Shown: one piece after another, positions 7,506 through 41,640 of the stretch
Numbering within the stretch: the stretch's first letter is position 1
Layout of the letters: every line of letters begins with the position of its first letter
IMG/VR virus record: IMGVR_UViG_3300042934_001053
Location: 1-49,415 of that record
Length of the DNA stretch: 49,415 nt
Strand: one strand, 5' to 3'
DNA from: a virus
The notes under the pieces: generated by a model
The model's database searches: none
The model's input: the letters and a program-made list of their open reading frames with translations, nothing else
What the model was told of the DNA's origin: nothing
Position numbers and translations under genes: made by a program

Positions 7506-9212
7506 CTACATATTTGCTAATGCTAATTTAAGTTCTGGAACTAATTCATTTAATATCTGTCGTGGTGTCATATTGGTTCCATTGATATTCACTACTACTG
7601 TTGGTTTGTTATTATTAGTAGTTGAAATACTATTTCTTCTATTATGAGGATTTTCTGAAGCTCTTACGATGCCTTCGCCTTTATGCAGCTTAGCAGTATA
7701 ACCATCAAAAGGAACATAATCTAAACCACTATAGTGTCGCCCATCAACAGAGCCTTTACTTTGTGAAGAATCTAATTTCTTATTCAACCATCCTGCAATA
7801 GCTCCAGCTTTATCAGCAACCCATCCAAGAGCATCTCCTAGTTTACTTAGAATAGGCTCTACAACACTCCATACGCTTGATGTAATCTCTTTTACATATG
7901 GAAATGCTAGTTGAAATGCTGTAAATACCATCTGAGCTCCACTAGCGATAATACCCCATATAGGCTCTATAATAGGCATAGCTGCGGAAGTTACTGCCTT
8001 AACTGCGCTCCAGGAAGTATCCCACACATCTTTAAAGAAAGTAGCCTTACTAACTATCCAGTCAAACTTGCTGCCTATCTTTGACCAATTATCTCCTATA
8101 AGTTTTGCAAAATCTAAAGCCTTTGTTCCAACAGCGGATAAAACTCCACCAACCTTAGTTGAAAAACTATTGATTTTAGGACTATCTAAGATGTTTATTA
8201 TCCCTTGCAGTAATGGCTTAGATTTTTCAAGCATCCTAATTCCTGCATCTTGGGCCCTGGATGCTAATCTTCCTTTTATAGTTGAAACTAACCCTGATCC
8301 AGTTTGTGAAAGCTTGGCAGCTCCCCCTTCAAATTGAGACTTTAACCTGGTATCAACTATCCCTTTAAAGCCTAGCTTCTTAAATTCTTCAGCACTGACC
8401 TTGGCATTGAACTCCTTCAAACGCTCCATTTCGCCATTCTTGGCATCGGCTAAACTTTCCATTGCGTCTGAAACAGTCTTTCCTGGTGTTAATGCTGCCA
8501 TATCTTCAGCTATCTTTACAAGTTCCATTGCTTCCTTGGTATTTCCACCAGTGATTCCTAAAGCTCTAGTTCCTGCTCTTATAACTTCCTGTGATGTAAA
8601 AGGAGTAACATTAGAATTTTCTCTTAGGTCCTTAAGGAAGCTATCCCTAATTTGAGTTATCCCTGAAGCACTTTTACCTTTATTGTTAATGCCTATAAAA
8701 TGCCCCATGGATACTTGCTGCTTCTCAAGATCTGCTCCACTTTTGAGCATTCCAACACCGGCACCGCCAATTGCGACGCTGGCAGCCAGTGCTACTCCCG
8801 CTGCCGATTTAGCAAGACCTTTCATCTTGCTGCTTACACTTGAGATATTATCTTTAATTTTAATAACAGGAGAAAATACTCTTCTTCCCATGGATTTTAA
8901 TTCATTAACTGTTTTAGTGATTTTTCTGCTTGCCATGTCTTTTAAAGCCATAGCAGTAACTATCTTTTTCCTGAAAGGAGCCATAGCAGTTTTTAGCTTT
9001 GTCATTTCCTTATATGCTCTTGTTGCATCCAGCCTGGCTTCCATCTTCTTTTTAAAAGTTTTTTCTAGCTCTTTCCTTGTAGATGTAATATCCTTTTTAA
9101 AGGCAGATTGTTCTTTTCTAACTCCTCTTAATGTAGCGGACATATTGTCTTTAAGTGTGAGGACTGCACCTATAACATGTTTACCACCTGCCACAGTATC
9201 ACCTCCAAGCAA
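7506..9212 (-). CDS. Tape measure protein
   Basis: 568 aa, Ala/Gly/Lys-rich helical protein downstream of the chaperone pair. The start is uncertain: TTG at 9212, or GTG about 15 nt downstream behind GGAGGT. Confidence 0.8.
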   Translation of the reverse strand: MLGGDTVAGGKHVIGAVLTLKDNMSATLRGVRKEQSAFKKDITSTRKELEKTFKKKMEARLDATRAYKEMTKLKTAMAPFRKKIVTAMALKDMASRKITKTVNELKSMGRRVFSPVIKIKDNISSVSSKMKGLAKSAAGVALAASVAIGGAGVGMLKSGADLEKQQVSMGHFIGINNKGKSASGITQIRDSFLKDLRENSNVTPFTSQEVIRAGTRALGITGGNTKEAMELVKIAEDMAALTPGKTVSDAMESLADAKNGEMERLKEFNAKVSAEEFKKLGFKGIVDTRLKSQFEGGAAKLSQTGSGLVSTIKGRLASRAQDAGIRMLEKSKPLLQGIINILDSPKINSFSTKVGGVLSAVGTKALDFAKLIGDNWSKIGSKFDWIVSKATFFKDVWDTSWSAVKAVTSAAMPIIEPIWGIIASGAQMVFTAFQLAFPYVKEITSSVWSVVEPILSKLGDALGWVADKAGAIAGWLNKKLDSSQSKGSVDGRHYSGLDYVPFDGYTAKLHKGEGIVRASENPHNRRNSISTTNNNKPTVVVNINGTNMTPRQILNELVPELKLALANM

Positions 9213-22915: not shown

Positions 22916-23695
22916 TTATTTTAATCTATTCTCATGTTCAGGTCTAATGTATTTATCTTGTATTGCTTGAACTTTAGTAGATAACTGAGTTGCTTGAATC
23001 TCTTCAAATTTCCTTGGCTCAGTAATGTTACGAGTTTCTATATATATACTTTGCCCTATTAGTCGAGAATATTGCTTTTTCATATGTTGATAGATCTTTC
23101 TAAAATTTTCATAATTTTGTAGGGAGTAGTGATAAAGATTTAATGGATAACTCCCCTCGCAATCCTGAAACTCGTTTATTGTAATGGGATTCAGATTATG
23201 ATGTTTATGAAGAGATGGATTTTGTTCAATGAGTCTTAATTTTGATGTTAATAAAGAGAAGGGTAAATGGTGAGCCCAGTTTCTTTGTTTAGTGAAATCT
23301 TTGATAATCTTCTCTTCTTCGTCAGTTAGATATAATAGTTCAAGTTCTATTGCCTTATTTTCAATTCTTTTTTTTGCTATTTTTCTAAAACCTAAATATG
23401 ACATTGCAAGTTTGGTATCATCTGCAATAGCATTCAATAGATTATTATCAATAAATGAAATTTTACTTAAACAATCATCATAAATCTTGTTAGGGAATTT
23501 TGTTTTTCCAGCACTTCCCATTTCATGTATACCGTATTCTTTTAAGTTGTCTTCTAATTCTTTTATATATCTTTTATATTTCCTAATATTTTTTTCAGTA
23601 GTAATTATCAAGTCCTGTAGCAATAGTATAAGATCTTCTTTCTTAACAACCCTAAAGGTTTTCAACTCTTTTAGCTTTTCATTTTCCACCATCAT
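22916..23695 (-). CDS. Hypothetical protein with an RNWAHH motif (possible HEPN-like)
   Basis: About 259 aa from the ATG at 23695 (the track ORF starts at 23707). KQRNWAHHLPF fits Rx4H. No other family was recognised. Confidence 0.3.
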   Translation of the reverse strand: MMVENEKLKELKTFRVVKKEDLILLLQDLIITTEKNIRKYKRYIKELEDNLKEYGIHEMGSAGKTKFPNKIYDDCLSKISFIDNNLLNAIADDTKLAMSYLGFRKIAKKRIENKAIELELLYLTDEEEKIIKDFTKQRNWAHHLPFSLLTSKLRLIEQNPSLHKHHNLNPITINEFQDCEGSYPLNLYHYSLQNYENFRKIYQHMKKQYSRLIGQSIYIETRNITEPRKFEEIQATQLSTKVQAIQDKYIRPEHENRLK

Positions 23696-23854
23696 AACTC
23701 CCCCCAAATAATAAAATATAATTCAAATAATTGTTAATTCCGTATACGTTGAACTTATTTTATTAATTACTATAATTCCTAAATATTGTTTATCTAGTAA
23801 ATTATAGCACGTTTTATTTAAATACAAAGTGCAATTACTTCTTTACTAAAATTT

Positions 23855-24361
23855 CTATGCACCCATATTTAACCCATCTATGCCAAACAACAGAATTCCT
23901 AACTCATTAACCATTTCATTTATCCATCTTCTTATGGTTCTTTCATTGCAATATAACTTAGTTGCCATTTCTTCATGCGTTATTTTATTAATGCAGACTT
24001 CTTTTAGTGCTTCATACTTCTCGAGTGAACATAATTTGATTTGCTTTTCTTTTAATATATCTAAGGCCATATCTATATGCGCTATCATAATTAATGTTTT
24101 ACTCTTACTTCTTTTTATTGAGAGTATATATAATTCATCTCTTTCAATATCTCCTAACTCTATAAGGTCGCTTTCAAGTTGTGTTATGTCTGCTATAGCA
24201 TTCTCAACATGCTGCTTTAAATCATTGTAATGAGTTAATAGAAGCTTTGTGTTATGGAATACTTTCCTCCTCTCTTCTAACTTTTTCTCTTTGTCATATT
24301 CTTTTATGGCCTTTATTGCTGCTTTATTTATAGTTTCTTCTATGTTAATTTGACTTTTCAT
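23855..24361 (-). CDS. Late-gene transcriptional activator (ArpU/RinA/sigma region-4-like)
   Basis: 168 aa with a C-terminal HTH (THEEMATKLYCNERTIRRWINEM). It is the last gene of the early/middle block. Confidence 0.5.
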   Translation of the reverse strand: MKSQINIEETINKAAIKAIKEYDKEKKLEERRKVFHNTKLLLTHYNDLKQHVENAIADITQLESDLIELGDIERDELYILSIKRSKSKTLIMIAHIDMALDILKEKQIKLCSLEKYEALKEVCINKITHEEMATKLYCNERTIRRWINEMVNELGILLFGIDGLNMGA

Positions 24362-24774
24362 CTTTTATTCTCCCTTCTTATTCTTTGAAGTTCTTCATAT
24401 TCAATCCAACCATCGGAATTTCCATGTTTTAAGTTTCTGGCAATCCAAGTAAGCTTCATTCCTGGATACTTAAACTCAAATAATTTTCTTCTTAGCTCTC
24501 CTTGCTGAGTACTAACCCCCTTTACATCGATGAGCTCCTCTTTTCCATCTAAATGATATATAAGAAAATCTGGTGTATATGTCGCGGCCCTATATGATCT
24601 TCCTTCTTTCTTAAACTTAGGAATTAGCTCATAAGTAGGCTGCAATTCAAAGTTTAGTATTTCCTCTCTAGCTTTTCTTTTCAGGAGATATTCATAATAT
24701 TTAAACTCATCTAAGGAGTCGAATGTATATCCATCAACTGTTATTTTCTTTGATCCGTATTTACTTTTTGTCAT
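24358..24774 (-). CDS. DUF1064-family PD-(D/E)xK-like protein
   Basis: 138 aa. SKKITVDGYTFDSLDEFKYYEYL...TYTPDF...IDVKG matches DUF1064. Confidence 0.6.
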   Translation of the reverse strand: MTKSKYGSKKITVDGYTFDSLDEFKYYEYLLKRKAREEILNFELQPTYELIPKFKKEGRSYRAATYTPDFLIYHLDGKEELIDVKGVSTQQGELRRKLFEFKYPGMKLTWIARNLKHGNSDGWIEYEELQRIRRENKR

Positions 24775-24809
24775 CTTATCACTTCTTTCACTAATAGCAT
24801 TTTATAACA

Positions 24810-24850
24810 CAAAAATACCGTAAAATTCATTTCTGAATAATACGGTATTT
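24810..24850. terminator. Bidirectional hairpin terminator downstream of the NACHT gene
   Basis: ATACCGTA (24815-22) and TACGGTAT (24841-48) form the stem, with T-runs on both strands. Confidence 0.6.
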
Positions 24851-24884
24851 TTATTTTTTTCAGAAGTTATTCTGATTTAATAAG

Positions 24885-26849
24885 TCAAAAATCATCATCT
24901 TCAAATTTTTCAGATTCAAGTTCTTTCTCAATAAGGGTTTTTAGTTTCATGCACTCTTTCAGATCAAGTGTATATAAATTTTCATGTGGGTCCCCCTCAT
25001 ATATTAAGAAATCATAAATTATCGAATTACCAATTGTAAAATTTTCTTTATAATTAAAAACATTTTCTTCTGATTCATCTATAAGAATCAATTTATCCTT
25101 AACAATTCCTGTAAAGTATTCAATTTGAATATAGTTATGCTTACTATTGGATTTTATAATAAAGCTTTCTCCTTTATTTCTTAATAACTTTATTATATTA
25201 TAGTTAGGTAAATTACTATATCCAATAAGATATTCTTTAGCAGTTAAAATCGTAACAAAATGCCCAATATCTTTTTTTATTCTATTAAGTACCTCATGAG
25301 TAATATTTCTGTTTATTTCTATGTCATTAGTTTTATATCTATAGAAGAATAGCCTTTTTGAGAATGTTAGCATCTTTCTTTCGCTGATATCTGCATTATC
25401 AATTTTCATATCTATAAACAATTGACGATTGTTATAATGATCCATGAAACTTGATATTAAATTTAAAATGATTGTCCTTCTAAAAGTTGTATAATCAATA
25501 TCATAGCAAAAGTCCAACACGTTATAATAGATATCATTTTTGCTACTTTTAGCCATGCTTAACAAAACATCTTTTTGTTTATCTTTTATATTATGACATA
25601 TATATTTAGCTGCAAAGTATTCCTGAAACGACTTATGGGTCCATCTATATTCTACTCCATCTTTAATGAACAGAGGAACATTTTTTATTAAATCTTCTAA
25701 ATAAGCAGTTTCTTTAAATTGAATTCTTGTATTTTTTTCTTTTGCTTCTTTTATAAGACCAATTAGCTCTTCTCTTTGATATATTGTTTTTCCCCTTACA
25801 AATGATTTATAACTAATATACTTAATTACCTCTTCGAAATCATCCATATCCAATTTACTCTCTTTATCGTGTACAAAAACTCCACCCTTAGAAAAATCAT
25901 GTACTTCAAACAATGCATCATAAACCTGTCTGTAGAAAAGAGATTTTTTATATGGTATTACTTTCTTATATTCATATGCTTTATATAAAAGAGACGTCAT
26001 AAGAGGATTTATAAGGAATTCACTTAATAGACTTAAATTTTTATCACTCTCTATTTTTTTATTTAGTTCTGCCGATAATTCTCCGCCATTATCATATTTA
26101 CTAATTAAATCATAAGCTTCATTTTTATCGAGAGGTTTAATATTAAAGCGTTGGAAATCGCCAAAGCTTACAAGTGCCCTTTCTTCTCTTGAAGACATAA
26201 TAAATACATTTTCTGAAGCCTTTGATATAAACCACTGTAAGTCTTCTGTTACCTTCGCTTTATCATTAGTTGCGATTTCATCATAACCATCGAAAAAGAA
26301 AATGAAGTCACCTCTTTTTAGTAAACTTAATATATATTTTTCATTAAATTGGTTATCAATAGAATTAATATTTTTAAAGATCTCATTAATTATTGTATTT
26401 TCTCGTGATAGTTTTCTAAGCTCAATAAATATTGGAATCCCCTCATGTTGCCTAATTGCGTTAATAAAAAGCCATTTCATCACTGTAGATTTTCCCATCC
26501 CAGCTGTATCAGTTATTATTATTTTTTTGTATCTTTCAATGAATTCTTTCTTATATGAATCAACCTTTATACATTCAAAATCTTCGCCATTATTCATAAC
26601 TTTGTTTAAGTGTAACGGAATGTATAATTCATCTATTGTCTTTTGTTGATTCTTAAATACGATAGTATTCATAATATGCTGGCTACTATATATTTCTTTA
26701 AGATATGCAGCAAATTTATCAGAAACTTCATTGTAGAAATTCTTATCTATCTCTCTTTTCTCAAGCATTTCTTTCAGTTTTGGCGTTAACCAAGTATCAA
26801 CAATGCTTTTTGTTAGCGCACTAATGAGATTTATCGTTACTGGATCCAT
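24885..26849 (-). CDS. NACHT/STAND P-loop NTPase (NLR-like)
   Basis: Walker A is IIITDTAGMGKSTV and Walker B is FIFFFDGYDEI (the hhhhDGxDE NACHT signature). There is a short helical N-terminus and an unassigned C-terminal region of about 350 aa. The ATG at 26849 sits behind GAGGA (the track ORF uses the GTG at 26858). Confidence 0.75.
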   Translation of the reverse strand: MDPVTINLISALTKSIVDTWLTPKLKEMLEKREIDKNFYNEVSDKFAAYLKEIYSSQHIMNTIVFKNQQKTIDELYIPLHLNKVMNNGEDFECIKVDSYKKEFIERYKKIIITDTAGMGKSTVMKWLFINAIRQHEGIPIFIELRKLSRENTIINEIFKNINSIDNQFNEKYILSLLKRGDFIFFFDGYDEIATNDKAKVTEDLQWFISKASENVFIMSSREERALVSFGDFQRFNIKPLDKNEAYDLISKYDNGGELSAELNKKIESDKNLSLLSEFLINPLMTSLLYKAYEYKKVIPYKKSLFYRQVYDALFEVHDFSKGGVFVHDKESKLDMDDFEEVIKYISYKSFVRGKTIYQREELIGLIKEAKEKNTRIQFKETAYLEDLIKNVPLFIKDGVEYRWTHKSFQEYFAAKYICHNIKDKQKDVLLSMAKSSKNDIYYNVLDFCYDIDYTTFRRTIILNLISSFMDHYNNRQLFIDMKIDNADISERKMLTFSKRLFFYRYKTNDIEINRNITHEVLNRIKKDIGHFVTILTAKEYLIGYSNLPNYNIIKLLRNKGESFIIKSNSKHNYIQIEYFTGIVKDKLILIDESEENVFNYKENFTIGNSIIYDFLIYEGDPHENLYTLDLKECMKLKTLIEKELESEKFEDDDF

Positions 26850-26890
26850 CTTAATCACGTCCTCTGGAAAAACTAAATATTTATATAATC

Positions 26891-26923
26891 ATTAATTTCT
26901 ACAAAAGACAACAAATTCCTTCT
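26891..26923 (-). promoter_or_regulatory. Diverged copy of the accessory-cassette promoter box upstream of the NACHT gene
   Basis: The minus strand reads AGAAGGAATTTGTTGTCTTTTGTAGAAATTAAT, compared with TAGAGGAATTTATAGTATTTTGTAGAATATATT in the box at 46578-46610. Confidence 0.4.
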
Positions 26924-27001
26924 TATTCTCTTAATATTAACAGATTATGTACCACATGCAAGATTTTTGACATTACACATTTATATACATTTAGATCTTA
27001 T

Positions 27002-27014
27002 CAAAAATACCGTA
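27002..27014. repeat. 13-bp direct repeat CAAAAATACCGTA; the partner copy is at 24810..24822
   Basis: The two exact copies bracket the NACHT cassette. Similarity continues weakly beyond them (ATTCA). Confidence 0.8.
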
Positions 27015-27105
27015 CTATTCAATTTTCAAAGAACATTTTTAGTTTTTTTATTTTAGAGTTGGATTATGTTTACTGAGATAATAATTTAATTGCTTATTAT
27101 TCTAG

Positions 27106-27981
27106 TCAATCCCATCCAAGAAGTTTCTTTTCTAACTCATCCATATTTATACCACCATCTGAACCATCATATTTCCGCTGCTTGAAATTATTAAAAGTAC
27201 TATGCTTACCATTTGAATTCAGTCTATTTCCTCTAGTAGTAACTATACTGTGACAAGTCTTTTCAGCTTTCATTTTTAATACAAGTTGCTCATACTTCTC
27301 ACGTAACTTCTTAGGGCTAAGAATATTAGCTAACCAGAAACTATCTGTTTGACAGAATTTAATAACCTGTTTAACCTCTTCCAGGTCCCTTTCATCAATT
27401 CTAAGAATACTATCAAAGTCCTTAGCCCATTTTTCAAAATTAGGCTCCTTAACCTGTTCATTGTTCTTTTTAATATAGTTAAATAAGTAAACTGCTAGTC
27501 GGTATTCATTAGATTCAAACGAGAATATAATATCTTTCTTATCATTCTTTACATTCTTATCATTCTTGTTAGGTGTTACCTCTTTGTTACCTCTTTGTTG
27601 GTCCTTTGTTACCTCATTGTTAGTTGCTTTGTTAGTTTCATCATCAAAACCTTGGTAAAGTCCCCAATTTACTATTGTTATGAGCCTTCCAGTCTTTGTT
27701 GATTCGTCTGTTAGAAAATCATATTTTTTGAATTTTCCTAGTGCACTTCTAACGTTTTGTACAGATATACCTTTACCACATTTTTCACAGATAGAATCTA
27801 ATGAGGTAACAAACTGACCAGGAGCAGCTTTAAATTGTTTACCATTCCACTCCCATTCTCTGCCTTGATGGTTGGCCATTCCTAGTAGGGTTATTAATAT
27901 AACCTTTTGCTCGGGAGTGGAATTTTGCCATATTGATTTTTCAAATAACTCTCTATGGAGTTTTAACCATCCTTGGCTCAT
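27106..27981 (-). CDS. Replication initiator / replisome organiser (N-terminal winged-helix, C-terminal conserved phage domain)
   Basis: 291 aa. MSQGWLKLHRELFEKSIWQ... is typical of phage replisome organisers. The C-terminal FESNEYRLAVYLFNYIKK...SPKKLREKYEQL resembles Phg_2220_C. Confidence 0.65.
   Translation of the reverse strand: MSQGWLKLHRELFEKSIWQNSTPEQKVILITLLGMANHQGREWEWNGKQFKAAPGQFVTSLDSICEKCGKGISVQNVRSALGKFKKYDFLTDESTKTGRLITIVNWGLYQGFDDETNKATNNEVTKDQQRGNKEVTPNKNDKNVKNDKKDIIFSFESNEYRLAVYLFNYIKKNNEQVKEPNFEKWAKDFDSILRIDERDLEEVKQVIKFCQTDSFWLANILSPKKLREKYEQLVLKMKAEKTCHSIVTTRGNRLNSNGKHSTFNNFKQRKYDGSDGGINMDELEKKLLGWD
27574..27640. repeat. Iteron-like array with 11-bp phasing inside the replication gene (candidate ori)
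   Basis: The units are TGTTACCTCTT, TGTTACCTCTT, TGTTGGTCCTT, TGTTACCTCAT, TGTTAGTTGCT and (T)TGTTAGTTTCA. Just upstream, TTCTTATCATTCTT occurs twice (27536-49 and 27555-68). Confidence 0.6.
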
Positions 27982-34040: not shown

Positions 34041-35237
34041 ATGGCGGTAAAAATCAACTATTCTAAGAACGGAAATGATTATTTTAGAGTAACCACATCA
34101 GTTGGTCGAGATAGCAATGGTAAATTAATAAGAAAAGAATTCTATGGAAAGAGTAAAAAGGAAGCTGAAGCTAAGAAAGATGACTATCTTAATGGACTAA
34201 AGAATGGACTTTCTATAGATTACAAAACTATAGTTCTTGGAAAGCTAATGCACTCCTGGTTATTCGAAATACTTAGAGTATCTAGCCATATAAAGCCTTC
34301 AACATTCCAAAGATACGAGGGAATTTTCAGAAACTACATAGAAAATAGCAACTTATACGGTATCAAGTTAAATGATATAAAATCTATTCAGATACAAAGA
34401 TATTATAACGAGCTTTATGAAAGCGGTAAGACTTACAGTCAAATATATAATCTGAATAAACTCTTAAAAAGTCTTTTAAACTATGCAGTTGAGGAAGGAT
34501 ATATTCTTAAAAATCCATGCTCTAACAAGAGAATTGTTATACCTGGACAAAGTAAAATTAAATCTACGATTAATAATGAATATGATGAAGATAATGAAGT
34601 TGTGATATATAGTAATGATGAGATCAAATTACTTAAGGCCGATCTAGAAAACCATAGACTTAAGGCTGCTATTTTACTAGATTTAGGAACCGGATTAAGA
34701 CTAGGTGAACTATTGGCATTACAGTGGTCTGATATTGATTCTGATTATTCCGAGCTAAAAGTTCAGCGAACCATTAAGGAAGTAACAGTAATAGCTGCTG
34801 ATAGAAGTAAGCAATATAAAACACTTATTCAGCCTCCCAAAACTAAGAAAAGCATCAGAACTGTTCCTATTCCATCTAGTCTTGTTGATGTTTTGAAGGA
34901 ACATAGACAAAGACAAGAAAAAGAAAAGTCGGACGCTGGAACTTCATATATTGAAAGTGATTTTGTATTTACTACTGAGTTAGGTAAAAATATTGATTCT
35001 AATAATTTTAGGCGGAGCTATAAGCGGATTCTCACCAAAGCTGGAATAGAATATAAAAAATTTCATGCACTGAGACATACTTATGCTACAAAATTATTTG
35101 AAAGAGAAGTACCTTTAAAAACTGTATCAGAGTTATTAGGTCACTCAGATATATCAATAACAGCTAATATTTACACTCATGTTATGCCAGAGGTAAAAAT
35201 TACTGCTGCTGAAAAATTAAATCATTTATTCGAATAA
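34041..35237 (+). CDS. int: Tyrosine recombinase / phage integrase
   Basis: 398 aa with an arm-binding type N-terminus and a SAM-like core. The catalytic region is GLRLGELLAL...HALRHTYATKL...LGHSDISITANIYTHV. Confidence 0.9.
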   Translation: MAVKINYSKNGNDYFRVTTSVGRDSNGKLIRKEFYGKSKKEAEAKKDDYLNGLKNGLSIDYKTIVLGKLMHSWLFEILRVSSHIKPSTFQRYEGIFRNYIENSNLYGIKLNDIKSIQIQRYYNELYESGKTYSQIYNLNKLLKSLLNYAVEEGYILKNPCSNKRIVIPGQSKIKSTINNEYDEDNEVVIYSNDEIKLLKADLENHRLKAAILLDLGTGLRLGELLALQWSDIDSDYSELKVQRTIKEVTVIAADRSKQYKTLIQPPKTKKSIRTVPIPSSLVDVLKEHRQRQEKEKSDAGTSYIESDFVFTTELGKNIDSNNFRRSYKRILTKAGIEYKKFHALRHTYATKLFEREVPLKTVSELLGHSDISITANIYTHVMPEVKITAAEKLNHLFE

Positions 35238-35667: not shown

Positions 35668-37953
35668 TTACATTTTATCTATAGTATTTAAGATATAATC
35701 CATTTGATCATTTTCAATATTATAATTATCAATTAAATCTTCCCTTAGTCTCTTGTATTTATCTGTTAACTTCTCTATTTTATATAACTCTAATAGGACA
35801 ATTTTGTATTCATAATCCTCAGGGCTTTTGCAACAGAGTTCTTCTAATTTTTGTATTGCTATATCACAATTTCCAGATTCCTTAAATGCCAAAGCCTTAA
35901 GAAAAAGAGACCAATCATGATTTTTGTTAATAATAATTAAATCAGTACAACAATTATATATAAATTTAGTAAGATTTCCATACCCGTTTTTTTGTAATAT
36001 ATTTGACATAAAAAACGCTGCATCTATGAATCTATTATTACTTATTAAATTTGTTAGATCTTTAGCATCATCTTCATCAATTATAATTTTAAAATTATCA
36101 AATACTTTATTTATGTTATCATTAAGCTCATCCTTTAATAAAACATCATATGTTCTTTTTGAAAATTCTATATATGATGCTAATTTACTATCAAAATATA
36201 TTTCACTCAATAATCCTAAACATATTAGAACATTTTGTATACTGCATTTTGATTTATTTATGATAGACATAACAAATTGCATATATTCTAAGTTATAAAT
36301 AGCACCGCTTTTTTCCTTGGAATTTAAATATTTTAGCCCTTCTGATTTTAACTCAATACTGATGATAGCAAGCATAGAATAATAAACAAAATATAAATCA
36401 TCAATATATGCATTTTCTTTTAACAAAACAAATATATCATTATTTTTTGATAAAGTAATTTTACCAAAAGCATATATATAGTTCAATCTAATATGAGGAT
36501 CCTCTTTATTTTCTTCATATGTATTAATTAAGATATATAATAAACTTTTTGGACACCAAGTATATGATGCCATAAATAAACCAACAATTTTAATCTTTTC
36601 ATCTTGTGGTGTATCATCACTCATAAGCTTTTGATAAAAAAACTCATGGGATAATCTATAATCAATATAATCATATGATTTGTAGTTAGTTGATACTATT
36701 TCAGTAATTTGGATTTTTTTAACTATAGAAGAGTGTTGAAAAGTTTGTTTAAAATATTGTAACGATTCCTCAGTCCCTTGGCTTATATACTCTTCATAAT
36801 ATTTATCATAGTATTCTATACTGGAATAATCTACATTTACGTTAAAGCTAGTTGGAACACCATTATTGTCAAACGGTCTTTGAGTCTGATGTTCAACTGA
36901 TATAACATCATGAAGTACAGAGTTATTCATAAGATATTGTCTAAAAATAAGTTCATTTGAACAAATACTTTTAAACAGACTAGAAAACTTAGTGTATGTG
37001 TTTTCCAAGTCGTCTTGGGTACATTTATTAAGCATATCTAATATATCATTCAAATCTGCTGTTATATCTATATGACCACAGATTTTATTTCTTACATCTC
37101 TTAAAGACTGTATTTTTTCTTTATATTTATAGTTCTCTTTAAAATTCACTAGTATAGTATATGCCTTTTCAAATGATTTATTTTCCAGATATTTATTCTC
37201 TATAATTAAATCTAACCCATCCATCGCCTGTTTTGCATCTGCAGCAACATTCCTTGTAAACAAGGCATCAGAATAATTAATTAAATCGAGTATTAGCAAT
37301 TCCTTAAATAGATTTCTTATTAAAGAATTATTATCAATTTTTAAAATCCTTAATTCATAGTTAATAATAAGTTCTAAAGACTTTAGAATCCCAGCTCTTT
37401 CATGAAGTGGATGACCGGACAAAGCTGCCACCGTATTAGGACGAGTTAATGCAAGTACATCATTTGCAATTCTCGGTCTATTCTCTAAATCCATTACAGA
37501 TGATATAGATTCTACATCTTTTCCTATAGTACTTCCAATAATATGTAGGATGCTTGTAAAATCCTCATACCAAACTTCATTTTTAAACATATTATATATC
37601 TCGATGATACTTTTAATAAAAAAATCTATTTTATAGTATTCAATCTCGGACCATATATCAATTCTTGTTCCAAAATCCATTACTTTAAAATGCCCACCGA
37701 AACTGTTTCTTTGCTTGTACAAAAACTCTTTATACAGTTCCTCAAGCGCATTTAAACTTCCTTTTATTCTTTTTCTTCTACTTTTTTCATTTATATCTAT
37801 CTGATTATTAGCTTGTCTTGCAAGAGTAATAAATGCATCTAATCTGATCATTACAAATCTTGATAGAGCTCGTTTATAAAATCCACAGCTTTTTAACCTT
37901 AATAGTTGATCAAGTATGATAATTTCCTTAGTGCAATATTTTAACTTATCCAT
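35668..37953 (-). CDS. Large hypothetical protein with two HEPN-like RNxxxxH motifs and a C-terminal TPR-like helical region
   Basis: 761 aa. The motifs are KQRNSFGGHF (R82-H88) and VRNKICGHID (R288-H294). The C-terminal LKALAFKESGNCDIAIQKLEELCCKSPEDYEYKIVLLELYK looks TPR-like. Confidence 0.35.
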   Translation of the reverse strand: MDKLKYCTKEIIILDQLLRLKSCGFYKRALSRFVMIRLDAFITLARQANNQIDINEKSRRKRIKGSLNALEELYKEFLYKQRNSFGGHFKVMDFGTRIDIWSEIEYYKIDFFIKSIIEIYNMFKNEVWYEDFTSILHIIGSTIGKDVESISSVMDLENRPRIANDVLALTRPNTVAALSGHPLHERAGILKSLELIINYELRILKIDNNSLIRNLFKELLILDLINYSDALFTRNVAADAKQAMDGLDLIIENKYLENKSFEKAYTILVNFKENYKYKEKIQSLRDVRNKICGHIDITADLNDILDMLNKCTQDDLENTYTKFSSLFKSICSNELIFRQYLMNNSVLHDVISVEHQTQRPFDNNGVPTSFNVNVDYSSIEYYDKYYEEYISQGTEESLQYFKQTFQHSSIVKKIQITEIVSTNYKSYDYIDYRLSHEFFYQKLMSDDTPQDEKIKIVGLFMASYTWCPKSLLYILINTYEENKEDPHIRLNYIYAFGKITLSKNNDIFVLLKENAYIDDLYFVYYSMLAIISIELKSEGLKYLNSKEKSGAIYNLEYMQFVMSIINKSKCSIQNVLICLGLLSEIYFDSKLASYIEFSKRTYDVLLKDELNDNINKVFDNFKIIIDEDDAKDLTNLISNNRFIDAAFFMSNILQKNGYGNLTKFIYNCCTDLIIINKNHDWSLFLKALAFKESGNCDIAIQKLEELCCKSPEDYEYKIVLLELYKIEKLTDKYKRLREDLIDNYNIENDQMDYILNTIDKM

Positions 37954-39049: not shown

Positions 39050-39793
39050 TTAAAAGTTATATTTGATAGGGTTTGCTGCTCCCTTCTTTCTATATTCCTT
39101 TGGAACTCTTTTACGTAAGTATATTTTTTTTATTGAATCATCGGCTTCATATCCAACGAATCCATACCTTTCTGGCCTATCTCCATTGAATTCGGGGAAA
39201 TTAGCTATAGTAGCAGATTTCCATTCAACTGGGATAAACACTCCTACAATGATACCTTGTTTAACTGCCAACACATAGTCTACTCTTTTTATTTTAGCTT
39301 TACTTAACTTCCATGCATATCTTGTTGCATCATAGATACTTCGTTCAGAAACAGATTTATTAATCGTAATCATGAGGACCTTATGCTCAAAAATAGCTTC
39401 TTGAGACATATATTTATTTATTATTTCTAAAGCATTCATAGGACCATACTCATTACTACCATGTCCACCCATTATGTTTGATACACCTGGATATGCATCA
39501 ATTAAAGCCGCTTCTACTTCTAATGCACATTTCTCATCCATCCCATGCCGGTGTATTACATGAATTACTTCTAAGCCAGCAACTATTATTTCTCTAATTA
39601 TTTGAATTTTATCATCAACTTCATCGAAGTTATCCATAGTAAGAGCACCTTTCATATGGTAAAAAACTCTATTTCCCTTACCTTTACCTATATAAAATGT
39701 TTCTCCATTTCTTGGATCTATAAGTCTATAAACATAATATTTTAATTCGTCAATTACCTCATTAGGAAACCTTTCCAATGCATTATTACTCAT
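39050..39793 (-). CDS. GIY-YIG nuclease-domain protein with an unassigned C-terminal domain
   Basis: YYVYRLIDPRNGETFYIGKGKGNRVFYH carries the GIY, YIG and Arg elements, with ALEVEAALIDAY downstream. 247 aa. Confidence 0.7.
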   Translation of the reverse strand: MSNNALERFPNEVIDELKYYVYRLIDPRNGETFYIGKGKGNRVFYHMKGALTMDNFDEVDDKIQIIREIIVAGLEVIHVIHRHGMDEKCALEVEAALIDAYPGVSNIMGGHGSNEYGPMNALEIINKYMSQEAIFEHKVLMITINKSVSERSIYDATRYAWKLSKAKIKRVDYVLAVKQGIIVGVFIPVEWKSATIANFPEFNGDRPERYGFVGYEADDSIKKIYLRKRVPKEYRKKGAANPIKYNF

Positions 39794-41037: not shown

Positions 41038-41640
41038 TTACTTTAGTGTATTAACTTTAACAAGATATGTATGTTCTTCAAGTAACCTTCTGTAATCACT
41101 TCTTAATAAATCTAATATTATTAATTCTTTTGTTTTTACATCATAATGCATAACATGCTCATCATTTTCTAAGTTAGCCTTATTTCTTAAGTTTGCTAGT
41201 ATACCAAATAAGCTTTCATGCCATTCTTTGTTATACTGAACCATACAACTTATTTTTAACTTATCTGAAATATTTTTGTCACCGTAAATGTTGTTGACTG
41301 CTTCATGTCTTCTACCATAAGCTTCCCCAAGCTGGTAGAATTCTTCAATCATGTCCATTGTTATATGTATTCTATATAATTCTTTACAATTTAGTTCTAC
41401 CATTTCTAAATCCTCCAGTACATCTTGTTTTATAACTTTTAGTGTTCTTGGCATAGTCTCGTCCCAGGTAATATACCCTTTTTTCTTTAACCGGCGTAAG
41501 TATCCATGTGTTGTAGAGCTAGATTTTAAGCCAACTAACTTCGTGAGCTCTCTTACTGACGGAGCTATCCTATTTTTATTTATGTATATATTTATCATTT
41601 GCAGCAACTCTTGTTGCTTCTTCGTTAGCTTTTCTCTCAT
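41038..41640 (-). CDS. LexA-type winged-helix DNA-binding domain protein lacking the S24 peptidase domain
   Basis: LTKKQQELLQMINIYINKNRIAPSVRELTKLVGLKSSSTTHGYLRRLKKKGYI fits LexA_DNA_bind. The C-terminal 120 aa are unassigned. Confidence 0.65.
   Translation of the reverse strand: MREKLTKKQQELLQMINIYINKNRIAPSVRELTKLVGLKSSSTTHGYLRRLKKKGYITWDETMPRTLKVIKQDVLEDLEMVELNCKELYRIHITMDMIEEFYQLGEAYGRRHEAVNNIYGDKNISDKLKISCMVQYNKEWHESLFGILANLRNKANLENDEHVMHYDVKTKELIILDLLRSDYRRLLEEHTYLVKVNTLK

Follow-up and report, generated by a model that had tools for sequence, protein, structure and literature searches.

The window, that is, the whole stretch of 49,415 nucleotides that was analysed, contains an intact bacterial NLR-like NACHT gene in a Clostridium-type prophage. 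The NACHT-SNaCT5 gene is encoded at 24885..26849 on the minus strand, with the stop codon at 24885-24887, and its product is a protein of 654 aa from an ATG start. In the open reading frame list for the window, the frame is given as 24885..26858 (-) with a GTG start and 657 aa: this alternative start at 26858 adds three residues. Because the closest homologue begins with MDPA, from a TTG codon at the equivalent position, the ATG at 26849 is preferred. The recorded protein of the contig (P0001) is 100% identical to the 654-aa protein, and phrog_18297 matches this protein end to end (4e-146). Directly upstream of the cassette, in the gene's own direction, there is a DnaD-like replisome organiser (27106..27981 (-); phrog_2514, 2e-63). 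Directly downstream of the hairpin H1, which is described below, there is a DUF1064 gene (24358..24774 (-); PD-(D/E)XK-like, phrog_190; Pfam 1e-47). Thus, the gene is flanked by a replication initiator and DUF1064, as an earlier note on this DNA had read it. The intergenic stretch upstream of the NACHT gene (26850..27105) is 256 nt, which agrees with the approximately 250 nt given in that note. The GC content of the cassette is 0.25-0.28, against 0.31-0.34 for the flanking phage genes. The phage also encodes an ERF-type annealing protein. The sole integrase in the window is a phage-type tyrosine integrase (phrog_1; 34041..35237), 7 kb from the cassette, and the window contains no transposase.

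Two Pfam domains were found in the protein above their cut-offs. The NACHT domain (PF05729; 26094..26522 (-)) scored 35.5 bits, above its cut-off of 26.7 (E = 1.1e-8). The C-terminal region, at 24921..25499 (-), matched SNaCT5 (PF22711) with 58.8 bits against a cut-off of 27, and this match covers profile positions 1-195 of 196. Therefore, the long C-terminal region is present as claimed but is no longer unassigned: it is a SNaCT5 domain, the presumed sensor, followed by an acidic tail (...DDDF) in which the acidic end with a final F is conserved. The open reading frame and both nucleotide-binding motifs had been read correctly from the sequence. Walker A is G117-M-G-K120-S-T122 (GMGKST; 26484..26501 (-)), in agreement with the GxxxxGK[ST] pattern, and Walker B is F184-F-F-D187-G-Y-D190-E191 (FFFDGYDE; 26277..26300 (-)), which has the D-G-h-D-E signature; both are included in the NACHT domain. 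The Walker A lysine had been numbered K123. This is the right lysine in the GTG-start numbering, but it is K120 in the 654-aa protein. The N-terminal extension (aa 1-58; 26676..26849 (-)), the presumed effector part, begins with MDPVT. It is predicted to form two long helices (residues 3-30 and 36-58), consistent with the short helical N-terminus that had been proposed. A recognisable enzymatic effector domain is indeed absent; however, this absence, which had been remarked on before, is already explained for the clade-14 bacterial NACHT class by its MDPIT-type N-terminal extension.

The fold points in the same direction as the domains. The AF2 model of the protein has a pLDDT of 88 and a pTM of 0.85. 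In a Foldseek search against the PDB, the best matches were NLRC4 (4kxf, 7e-14; TM 0.49 across about 466 columns), NAIP/NLRC4 (8fvu), NOD2 and NLRP3. Model and matches agree with the NBD-HD1-WHD-HD2 fold of animal NLRs. There is also a weak Pfam match to NLRC4_HD2, and a structure search in BFVD gave just one further NLR-like viral protein. Profile and structure searches of both terminal regions had been recommended in the earlier note: Pfam and Foldseek searches with the protein bear out the assignment to the NACHT/STAND NTPases.

We collected 1,710 homologues of the protein, which are mostly about 660 aa and have the same two domains. Most of them are chromosomal, in many Firmicutes and beyond. 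Among 73 homologous sequences, G117, M118, G119, K120 and T122 of Walker A are invariant and S121 is nearly so; D187, G188, D190 and E191 of Walker B are invariant, and R145, R221 and H405 likewise. In contrast to the NACHT module, where the mean column entropy is 1.44 bits (1.41-1.46), SNaCT5 is variable (2.78 bits; Welch t = -15.7, p = 7e-44). The N-terminus also differs among homologues. Of 120 listed homologues, only the window protein, P0002 (which begins with MDPAI) and P0047 have an MDP start, 3 in all; most SNaCT5 proteins among these 120 closest begin with M-[ENDQ]-x-hydrophobic, without proline. Therefore, the MDP effector motif is not a constant of the family.

These features resemble those of clade-14 bacterial NACHT (bNACHT) proteins. 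Judged from sequence, the combination of NACHT and SNaCT5 is the short-C-terminus architecture of the clade-14 anti-phage proteins. The members of this clade possess a short N-terminal extension with an MDPIT motif, and in bNACHT11 both this motif and the C-terminal tail are required for function (Robbins et al., bioRxiv 10.1101/2024.12.17.629029). The NACHT clade is defined by a D[GAS]hDE Walker B signature, and in clade 14 the SNaCT domain is reported to vary more than NACHT does (Kibby et al., bioRxiv 10.1101/2022.07.19.500537). The structural neighbours reported for bNACHT11 are the NLRC4 and NAIP group with entry 8FVU, which was also obtained here. Accordingly, the window protein shares with bNACHT01 and bNACHT11 a length of approximately 640-660 aa, the order of short N-terminal extension, NACHT module and short non-repeat SNaCT, the Walker A lysine, the D-G-h-D-E Walker B, a SNaCT more variable than the NACHT module, the C-terminal tail and the NLRC4/NAIP neighbours; its MDPVT start can be compared with the MDPIT consensus. 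There are also differences. The window gene is carried by a low-GC Clostridium-type prophage, whereas bNACHT01 and bNACHT11 are encoded in enterobacterial chromosomes. The SNaCT of the window protein belongs to Pfam family 5 and is likened to that of bNACHT11 by architecture. Furthermore, the extension is approximately 58 aa with two confident helices, and an MDP start is rare among its own closest homologues.

Direct sequence comparison did not connect the protein to characterised defence proteins. A phmmer search against PDB sequences gave no detectable match to the E. coli or Klebsiella NACHT defence proteins, and the 73-sequence profile against the PDB gave no bacterial NACHT structure and only marginal NLRC4 matches. 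The bNACHT11 structure 9ORF was missing from both the PDB sequence results and the Foldseek results. PADLOC-DB v2 gave no real match (DpdH only, E = 0.0027 over 59 residues), and NCBIfam gave only a weak match to EruA (29.6 bits against a cut-off of 1000).

A phage-borne homologue has been described previously. Orf84 (gp84) of the C. difficile myovirus phiCDHM1, annotated as a 'putative signalling/NTPase protein', closes the replication region on its 3' side, and its transcripts were detected in lytic and lysogenic cultures (Hargreaves et al. 2014, PMC3901668). The homology is full-length, with 40.5% identity over 97% of the protein. However, it is found in another phage backbone, without the box or H1, and has its own unrelated terminator. 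The gene of the window likewise lies in the replication module, as the earlier note described.

We then consider the flanks of the gene. The exact 13-mer CAAAAATACCGTA is present at 24810-24822 and at 27002-27014, as had been noticed before, and an inverted copy with one mismatch is present at 24841-24853. The number of matches expected by chance is 0.07, and three matches were obtained in none of 100 shuffles. The flank repeat extends, imperfectly, to 28 nt. The upstream copy is contained in a box, ATGTTCTTTGAAAATTGAATAGTACGGTATTTTTG (27002..27036 (-)), and the downstream copy is contained in the 3' arm of the terminator hairpin H1, AAAAAUACCGUAUUAUUCA-GAAA-UGAAUUUUACGGUAUUUUU (24809..24854 (-)), which is located 30 nt past the NACHT stop codon. 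The RNA of 24796-24870(-) folds with -21.7 kcal/mol (z = -6.84) and is followed by UUUUUG, whereas the fold at the upstream copy has z = -0.38 and no partner arm. These values agree with the previous reading of a hairpin terminator belonging to the gene, in which the downstream copy is one arm and the upstream copy is unpaired. A simple terminator scan overlooked H1, because there are only two G-C pairs in each stem arm. The box and H1 are related in sequence: the reverse complement of the H1 5' arm is found again in the 3' part of the box. A stretch of approximately 15-20 nt is common to this part, to the inverted 5' arm and to the direct 3' arm, and this common stretch is the reason why the 13-mer occurs on both flanks. 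An Rfam search over 24300-27400 gave nothing meaningful.

In the candidate promoter region of the cassette (26890..26975 (-)), all sigma-70-like matches are weak, namely ATGTCA-18-CATAAT (26973..26944) and TTGTTG-N17 (near 26922). These are 9-of-12 matches, not above shuffles, and no convincing promoter was found in the window cassette. The extended -10 sequence TGnTAnAAT, which is present downstream of the box in 38 of 61 cassettes (in 25 of them at a fixed offset of 10-11 nt), is absent from the window cassette. A TTTTGTAGAAA stretch upstream of the gene is common to the window and to the cassette of L001, another phage backbone in which a 63%-identical NACHT homologue has a partial box and the hairpin.

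In related phages, dozens of accessory genes that are unrelated to each other lie between the same two elements, the box at the start and the hairpin at the end. The 23-nt core of the box is exact in 67 viral stretches. The hairpin is found within 4 kb of the box in 45 of 69 instances (14 of the 24 instances without it have less than 2.1 kb of stored downstream sequence), and a single gene lies between box and hairpin in 36 of these 45. When the 15-nt hairpin arm was used alone for a scan, more than 119 stretches were obtained; a box-like sequence lies upstream of 32 of 56 new hairpins, and 17 of the remaining ones have less than 1.5 kb of stored upstream sequence. The 54 cargo proteins form 49 clusters. 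They include Abi_alpha, GmrSD_N, RES, GNATs, PDC-S47, NsnA, Cass2, toxins and small membrane proteins, and many are without a known family. For example, in the closest relative of the window phage (L034; DnaD 74%, ERF 75% and MTase 90% identity), the same box follows the DnaD gene, and the hairpin, nearly identical over about 45 nt, follows an unrelated 306-aa gene. Thus, this phage and the window have the box and H1 in common and the cargo not. In addition, one 78-aa cassette was found in four contexts, and its identity stops sharply at the motif edges with CAATT on both sides. A second palindrome (tCGCAAT-N8-ATTGCGa) often lies at cassette junctions, and cassettes form arrays; the window cassette does not possess this palindrome.

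The slot between DnaD and DUF1064 is variable. It is occupied by other genes in L015, L034, L036 and L038, and the nearest NACHT homologues occur in other phage backbones, so that the gene is an accessory cassette rather than a core replication gene, as had been suggested. It had also been expected that DnaD and DUF1064 are contiguous in related phages. A megablast search of INPHARED for close relatives gave a 50-nt match only, and scans of viral, genome and metagenome collections anchored on DnaD, DUF1064 or phrog_1558 gave mosaic relatives, none with DnaD adjoining DUF1064; in other phages, DUF1064 has no H1 or box in front of it. Because the slot is always filled, and by differing genes, the data indicate cassette exchange in a variable slot and not insertion between adjacent genes. 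No empty site and no recent gain or loss was found among near-identical phages, and therefore the mobility of the cassette is judged from mosaic comparison only.

These results also change the meaning of the 13-mer. The earlier note interpreted it as a likely recombination scar and proposed to check whether relatives have it as a single copy; instead, it is the shared part of a conserved box and terminator hairpin, which recur around unrelated genes in more than 100 viral contigs. Direct repeats around an insert of lower GC content could in principle have arisen by transposition, as duplicated target sites, or by chance in DNA that is rich in A and T, but we regard such an origin as extremely improbable. 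A target duplication would be specific to its site, yet both copies are motifs conserved in more than 100 other contigs with other genes between them, and a transposase is absent. Chance is opposed by the expected count of 0.07, the shuffles and the imperfect extension to 28 nt. We therefore rejected both origins on the expected count and the recurrence elsewhere.

An arrangement of this type is known from T4-type phages. In the PeSL (promoter-early stem-loop) system, short conserved motifs that combine promoter and terminator surround non-essential, highly variable genes, and it has been proposed that modules are shuffled by recombination between these motifs (Arbiol et al. 2010, PMC2839356; Comeau et al. 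2014, PMC4122927). The box and H1 are similarly repeated around 49 cargo clusters, with the arm motif in more than 119 stretches; the 78-aa cassette in four contexts and the differing cargo of the window and its closest relative are further points of likeness. Most likely, the portable boundaries let phage recombination swap cargo between genomes, as in PeSL. However, the phages here are temperate and of the Clostridium type, not lytic T4-likes, the sequences are unrelated, the box repeats one arm of the downstream hairpin so that the cassette ends have both inverted and direct repeats, a second palindrome is often present, and the cassettes are known from sequence alone. The cassette boundaries look undescribed for Clostridium phages: a full-text literature search for the motif sequences returned no paper, and a search for TTCTTTGAAAA returned nothing relevant.

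Morons of lambdoid phages, in the concept of Juhala and Hendrix, are extra genes between phage genes with their own terminator and promoter and a presumed benefit for the lysogen. The window gene is also an extra gene between phage genes, with a terminator and a candidate promoter region, a differing base composition and a presumed lysogen benefit. In contrast, its boundaries are a conserved, reusable pair, and no relative has the flanking DnaD and DUF1064 genes adjacent; to our knowledge, classical morons have no boundary sequence in common. Integron cassettes with attC are single-gene units which end in an imperfect palindrome, form arrays and carry diverse cargo (GNATs, Cass2-type proteins, toxins). 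The cassettes here share the single-gene organization, the imperfect palindromic end, the arrays and the very diverse cargo. However, neither an integron integrase nor attI was found, and the one integrase that the window encodes is of the phage type; most of the cassettes here have TGnTAnAAT promoters, and the hairpin resembles an intrinsic terminator with a U-run.

Taken as a whole, the observations are probably best explained by a clade-14-like NACHT gene that acts as a prophage-borne defence in a single-gene cassette with portable boundaries. The family, the fold, the intact motifs, the variable sensor domain, the build of the cassette and its recurrence around other cargo are shown by the data. 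That lysogens express the gene, that it acts against phages, what triggers it, how it kills and how recombination proceeds are inferred; expression, defence and killing by analogy with the E. coli and Klebsiella proteins. The NACHT gene would travel as a single-gene cassette, with a box of approximately 30 nt upstream of the promoter region and a terminator hairpin after the stop codon. If the protein works as bNACHT01 and bNACHT11 do, the prophage would express it in the lysogen, the SNaCT domain would bind at least one protein of a superinfecting phage, and the ATP-bound NACHT modules would assemble into a ring. The clustered N-terminal extensions might then kill or arrest the cell (abortive infection), by which the lysogen population and the prophage would be protected. 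It is improbable that the protein serves the prophage otherwise than by excluding phages, for example as an addiction or kill switch that senses the state of the host or phage, or in control of its own lysis-lysogeny decision or replication. Such a role would suit the position between the replisome organiser and a resolvase-like gene, and the phiCDHM1 homologue, which is transcribed in lytic as well as lysogenic cultures, has a similar place where its replication region ends. However, relatives hold unrelated accessory genes in the slot, the closest one has no NACHT gene, most homologues are chromosomal, the variability of the sensor domain is arms-race-like, and every tested member of the bNACHT class acts in phage defence.

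The role of the box and hairpin can also be read in two other ways. On one reading, which we hold tentatively and consider rather unlikely, the box is a cassette-borne RNA antiterminator that pairs with the 5' arm of H1 and blocks the terminator in read-through transcripts. Transcripts from the cassette's own promoter would start past the box and stop at H1, so that the downstream lytic genes would stay silent in the lysogen, while read-through from the early operon would contain the box and the cassette would not be polar on DUF1064 and later genes. With the same low probability, box, gene and hairpin would form a self-contained 'transparent insulator' cassette of Clostridium-type temperate phages, so far undescribed, with its own promoter for expression of the cargo (here the NLR-like sensor) in the lysogen, a terminator that shields the lytic genes downstream and a box that switches the terminator off in lytic growth; the same conserved ends would also be handles for swapping cargo between phages. 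The exact complementarity of the box 3' part and the 5' arm is consistent with this idea. The predicted box:arm duplexes are approximately 14-23 bp with a mean of -22.5 kcal/mol, against -16.2 for H1, and the 3' arm of H1 is systematically imperfect (bulge, G.U). The box is on the gene strand, upstream of the TGnTAnAAT sequence where this is present, and nearly all box loci have their upstream gene on that strand as well. Deviations from the TACGGTA core are wobble-compatible in 21 cases and mismatched in 5 (boxes collected without box selection), and the pairs of box R and arm Y are A/T 20, G/T 13, G/C 4, T/C 1 and A/C 0. However, this association of R and Y lacks significance, and the cassettes cannot be counted as independent; common descent might account for the wobble pattern, if boxes are homologous to 3' arms and the two exchange by recombination. 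Furthermore, a distance of 0.3-2.2 kb and a translated gene separate the pairing partners, 10 changes at position 2 of the shared segment are non-pairing, and the conserved prefix TGTTCTTTGAAAA is unexplained by pairing. The antiterminator reading bears on the flanks alone and leaves room for a role of the gene in defence.

On the other reading, also a doubtful one in our estimate, the box and the 5' arm are protein-binding sites, either recombinase- or transposase-like terminal inverted repeats (integron- or MITE-like) or operators for a regulator of phage or host, lying over the -35 region of the cassette promoters. The 5' arm is 96-100% conserved per position, with one Y position at 82%, against 64-93% for the 3' arm, and this conservation exceeds the needs of pairing alone. 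The frequent second palindrome at junctions, the arrays, the sharp ends with CAATT on each side of the same cassette in four contexts and the integron-like cargo (GNATs, Cass2, toxins, small membrane proteins) would suit recombination sites, and the box lies approximately 24-47 nt upstream of the start site expected after the extended -10. In contrast, no dedicated recombinase is associated, the window integrase being an ordinary phage tyrosine type 7 kb off; the second palindrome is missing from the window cassette; the cassettes have their own promoters, unlike integron cassettes; and the box to -10 spacing is not fixed in a third of cases. A co-occurring regulator was not found: few of the loci with a box also have the phrog_1558 regulator, and the box was rejected as its site. 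The box was also rejected as a sigma-70 -35 element, because at the common spacing the sequence ARTACG or TARTAC occupies the hexamer position 17-18 nt before the -10.

With this gene, the NACHT-SNaCT class gains a phage-borne member from low-GC Firmicutes; the mechanism of the class has so far been worked out in enterobacteria only. The gene can serve to ask if the short N-terminal effector motif and the sensing of multiple ligands by SNaCT apply to Gram-positive hosts, and which phage proteins act as triggers. The 23-nt box and 15-nt hairpin arm pick out more than 100 single-gene accessory cassettes in phage contigs, and for several cargo proteins the match is to a defence or toxin family, known or candidate (Abi_alpha, GmrSD, RES, PDC-S47, NsnA). 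With this signature, candidate genes for prophage defence and for lysogenic conversion can be collected cheaply from the sequences of Clostridia, and the cassettes are a tractable system for accessory-gene exchange and insulation in phages. If the transparent insulator is true, it would be a general answer to the insertion of terminated accessory genes into operons without polarity, and a searchable signature for new prophage-borne defence genes. As a lead, the conserved box prefix (GCTCTTTG in the closest relative) resembles boxA of rrn operons and lambda, for which we take the E. coli consensus to be UGCUCUUUAACAA.

The NACHT cassette lies on the minus strand of a prophage-like element. This element carries structural genes at about 1 to 20 kb, recombination and replication genes (ERF, DUF1351 and DnaD), an anti-repressor, a Cro/CI-type HTH gene and a phage integrase (34041..35237). 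Read 5′ to 3′ on the minus strand, the NACHT gene is preceded by a DnaD-like replisome organiser (27106..27981; phrog_2514, 2e-63) and followed by DUF1064 (24358..24774; Pfam, 1e-47; phrog_190), and a regulator-like gene of phrog_1558 is also located 3′ of it. The ORF listing gives the gene a GTG start (24885..26858, 657 aa). An ATG start at 26849 gives a product of 654 aa, which is 100% identical to the recorded protein of the same contig (P0001). Because this product begins with MDPVT and the 63% identical homologue P0002 begins with MDPA from a TTG codon at the equivalent position, the ATG was taken as the start and residues are numbered from it. Walker A is then G117-M-G-K120-S-T122 (26484..26501) and Walker B is F184-F-F-D187-G-Y-D190-E191 (26277..26300). 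The earlier note had picked the correct catalytic-motif lysine; its number, K123, counts from GTG, and the residue is K120 from ATG. The GC content is 0.25-0.28 in the cassette as against 0.31-0.34 in its neighbours. Because the motifs, coordinates, repeat, hairpin and GC contrast were all found, the original observation is confirmed: it is real, and its core interpretation, an accessory gene in a NACHT cassette, is right.

The NACHT domain (PF05729) scored 35.5 bits against a Pfam cut-off of 26.7, which, together with both Walker motifs and NLR-type Foldseek matches, bears out the NACHT/STAND core. An AlphaFold2 model from 73 sequences is confident (pLDDT 88, pTM 0.85). It begins with two long helices (3-30 and 36-58), in line with the short helical N-terminus described before, continues with an alpha/beta NTPase and then helical and winged-helix parts, and ends in a mixed alpha/beta domain. 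The C-terminal region, which had been called long and unassigned, matches a named Pfam domain, SNaCT5. Foldseek against PDB returned NLRC4 (4kxf, 7e-14), NAIP/NLRC4 (8fvu), NOD2 and NLRP3; searches of PDB sequences with the protein and with a 73-sequence profile gave no bacterial NACHT structure and at most marginal NLRC4 hits. K120, D187, G188, D190, E191, R145, R221 and H405 are invariant in 73/73 sequences, and judged from sequence the protein looks functional rather than decaying. The database search found 1,710 homologues. Of the best 120, most have a length of 650-680 aa and share the two-domain layout; the 120 are from Clostridium, Clostridioides, Paraclostridium, Bacillus-group genera and some Acidobacteriota. 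PHROGs already includes the family (phrog_18297, full length, 4e-146; annotated as function unknown), and PADLOC and NCBIfam did not recognise the protein.

Bacterial NACHT clade 14 is defined by a short C-terminal extension, named SNaCT, and SNaCT diversification outpaces that of the NACHT module in this clade (Kibby et al., bioRxiv 10.1101/2022.07.19.500537). Columns of SNaCT5 had a mean entropy of 2.78 bits and those of the NACHT module one of 1.41-1.46 (p = 7e-44). The characterised clade-14 anti-phage protein bNACHT11 has no recognisable effector domain, just an N-terminal extension whose conserved start is required for defence; beta-augmentation lets its SNaCT bind several phage proteins that are unrelated to one another, and the outcome is plasmolysis-type cell death (Robbins et al., bioRxiv 10.1101/2024.12.17.629029). 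The window protein agrees with the anatomy reported in that study point by point: it has 654 aa versus about 639 aa, Walker A lysine K120 versus K115, and an N-terminal extension of 58 residues starting with MDPVT versus ~45 residues starting with MDPIT. The structural neighbours reported for bNACHT11, NLRC4 and NAIP, are also Foldseek neighbours of the window protein (entry 8FVU in both). Its acidic tail ending in F is conserved among homologues; the MDP start occurs in just 3 of the 120 listed homologues, the others having M-E/N/D-x-hydrophobic. Because the protein matches the bNACHT11-class anatomy, no enzymatic effector is expected. Thus, the absence of a recognisable effector holds, but it is normal for this class and not an anomaly. 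Defence activity, trigger and killing mode are properties that we infer for the window protein.

The NACHT gene thus adds a member to a known class, and a phage precedent is already described. A tblastn search against cultured phages found gp84 of the C. difficile phage phiCDHM1 (40.5% identity over 97% of the protein), which is transcribed in infected and lysogenic cultures (Hargreaves et al. 2014, PMC3901668). In the linear phage record, this gene comes after a regulator gene and is at the right end, which is the replication-region end; neither box nor hairpin is present there. Given this precedent, finding a NACHT gene at this place in a phage genome is not novel. Other homologues have other settings: P0004 has serine recombinases around it in the chromosome of Crassaminicella profunda, and P0002 follows a C5-methylase in the early region of another phage (contig L001). 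The L001 gene is in the same cassette type on a different backbone, preceded by a partial box (TTGTTCTTTGAAAATTGAATAATA) and followed by the hairpin. At L001 10094..10170, 3′ of the cassette, there is a 27-codon remnant of phrog_1558 (MKNNINIDETIKKAAKEAIKEFEKENN*), which suggests a common cassette slot directly 5′ of this regulator, with truncation of the regulator at that place.

In the closest relative of the window phage, L034 (IMG/VR 3300042934_001137), ERF (75%), DUF1351 (71%), DnaD (74%), phrog_1558 (76%) and a methyltransferase (90%) are shared, and the NACHT gene is absent. In L034, DnaD and phrog_1558 are about 5 kb apart; the other genes that fill this interval include RecU, an HNH nuclease and several unknowns. 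In a C. fallax prophage, two small genes, one AbrB-like, part DnaD from DUF1064; in contigs L036 and L038, about 0.9-1.7 kb of other DNA does so. Other DUF1064 phages have coding sequence right up to DUF1064 and no hairpin. Because relatives fill the slot with other genes, the NACHT gene counts as accessory and its slot as variable. The expectation that the flanking genes would be contiguous in relatives failed, since DnaD directly adjoining DUF1064 was not found in those compared. The methyltransferase of the window phage (21768..22523, minus strand) is an orphan-looking D12-class N6-adenine enzyme (PADLOC MTase_II, 8e-47), about 80% identical to those in several other box-bearing contigs.

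The 13-mer CAAAAATACCGTA occurs exactly on both cassette flanks, at 24810-24822 and 27002-27014, as had been noted, and as an inverted copy with one mismatch at 24841-24853. The chance expectation was 0.07, and three matches were found in 0/100 shuffles. The downstream pair forms the predicted terminator hairpin of the gene, with the 13-mer as one arm: the gene-strand RNA folds at -21.7 kcal/mol (z = -6.84), and the hairpin, followed by UUUUUG, lies 30 nt past the NACHT stop codon. The A/U richness of its stem is the sole reason why a consensus terminator scan did not pick it up. The upstream copy indeed has no partner arm (fold z = -0.38).

The earlier note read the 13-mer as a recombination scar. 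It is instead the common part of two elements that recur in many contigs, the box upstream of the gene and the 3′ arm of the hairpin; in the window cassette, the identity continues into the T-run. After DnaD, L034 carries GCTCTTTGAAAATTGAATAATACGGTA, the same box as window 27036..27008 (ATGTTCTTTGAAAATTGAATAGTACGGTA), and a second copy precedes an unrelated 306-aa gene. The hairpin after this gene is near-identical to the post-NACHT hairpin over about 45 nt. Exact copies of the 23-nt box core were found in 67 stretches of IMG/VR contigs, and a one-base-longer box precedes HMT_19, annotated as 'restriction endonuclease', in Clostridium phage HM T. The hairpin pattern ATACCG-N9-31-CGGTAT follows 45 of the 69 box instances at a distance of no more than 4 kb; for 14 of the 24 that lack it, the stored sequence is shorter than 2.1 kb. 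A single gene lies between box and hairpin in 36/45, the hairpin being 12-243 nt past the gene end. An independent scan with the hairpin 5′ arm alone matched >119 stretches; a box-like sequence (<=4 substitutions) lies within 4 kb upstream of 32/56 new hairpins, mostly 0.3-2 kb off, and 17 of the 24 without a box have <1.5 kb of upstream sequence stored. The 5′ arm, aAATACCGTAyTATTCA, is 96-100% conserved per position (82% at y) and is the exact reverse complement of the box 3′ part. The 3′ arm ((t)GAATATGCGGTATTTTT) is 64-93% conserved and pairs imperfectly.

The cargo is very diverse: 54 proteins fell into 49 clusters. Several matched known or candidate defence or toxin families; the Pfam and PADLOC matches were GNATs (3), Abi_alpha, GmrSD_N, RES, Barstar, NUDIX, PadR, ArsR and AraC-Cass2 regulators, PDC-S47, NsnA and PD-T4-2_A. 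By eye, several short cargo sequences are strongly hydrophobic and resemble small membrane proteins. One 78-aa cassette is found nearly unchanged in four contexts, with identity from AACAATTTGAA to GCGCAATTCAAA. The boundary pair marks a widespread cassette system of Clostridium-type temperate phages, which seems to be undescribed, and in the literature library searched by full text no paper has its motif sequences. The main added interest lies in this pair, which recasts the 13-bp repeat as a cassette system. In HM T (KU517658, 4001-6520), a cultured phage, the unit consists of box, TGCTATAAT promoter, the 788-aa HMT_19 and a degenerate hairpin, and lies between replication genes and a sigma factor, in the early/late boundary slot that the window cassette also occupies. 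A second palindrome, tCGCAAT-N8-ATTGCGa, is present at many cassette junctions and absent from the window cassette. Viral contigs L045, L067, L085, L098 and L102 contain tandem arrays with the junction order hairpin, T-run, second palindrome, next box.

How might these boundaries work? An extended -10 (TGnTAnAAT) occurs within 120 nt past the box in 38/61 distinct cassettes versus 11/305 control windows, and in 25 of those 38 at a fixed offset of 10-11 nt. From this position, the box would sit just upstream of the putative cassette promoter, and the hairpin would end the unit. Most economically, these portable promoter and terminator motifs would be read as sites where phages exchange cargo by recombination. 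Such swapping would fit the ERF-type annealing protein of the window phage, and the window and L034 have box and hairpin in common while everything between and beyond differs, which also fits. The same logic, portable boundaries with recombinational cargo exchange, has been proposed for the PeSL (promoter-early stem-loop) motifs of T4-type phages (Arbiol et al. 2010, PMC2839356; Comeau et al. 2014, PMC4122927).

Two other functions of the box were considered. It could be an RNA antiterminator, present only in read-through transcripts and pairing with the hairpin 5′ arm. Predicted box:arm duplexes average -22.5 kcal/mol versus -16.2 for the hairpin, and in boxes collected without box selection, changes in the TACGGTA core are wobble-compatible in 21 cases and disruptive in 5. 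However, 10 disruptive changes fall at position 2 of the shared segment and the partners are 0.3-2.2 kb apart, and we regard this function as unlikely. The conserved box prefix TGTTCTTTGAAAA (27024..27036, minus strand; L034 counterpart GCTCTTTG, with GCTCTTTGAAAA at 8553..8565) resembles boxA of the rrn and lambda nut antitermination sites, the consensus of which we take to be UGCUCUUUAACAA. Box and arm could also be inverted repeats bound by a recombinase or an operator-binding regulator, which likewise seems improbable; an associated enzyme or regulator was looked for and none was found.

Several other features of the window were observed. A 263-aa ORF (22916..23707, minus strand) with an R-x4-H motif (RNWAHH, HEPN-like) had no match in Pfam, PHROG or PADLOC, and is a distant homologue (29%, 4e-17) of box/hairpin cassette cargo in contig L073. 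The region upstream of it (23708..23854) contains TGCTATAAT, of the extended -10 type seen in cassette promoters. Probably, this ORF is another accessory or defence-like gene. Inside the DnaD-like gene, adjacent 21-nt direct repeats at 27582-27602 and 27604-27624 (CTTTGTTACCTCTTTGTTGGT / ...CATTGTTAGT, 90% identical) could be iterons of an origin embedded in the initiator gene. Just past the integrase, a 761-aa ORF (35668..37953, minus strand) without a Pfam or PHROG match lies where the window has its lowest GC (0.24). The 38-49 kb part contains many ORFs without a family, together with a LEM-3-type GIY-YIG nuclease (39050..39793) and a LexA-like protein (41038..41640); instead of being plain host DNA, the region past the integrase may represent another mobile element or an island.
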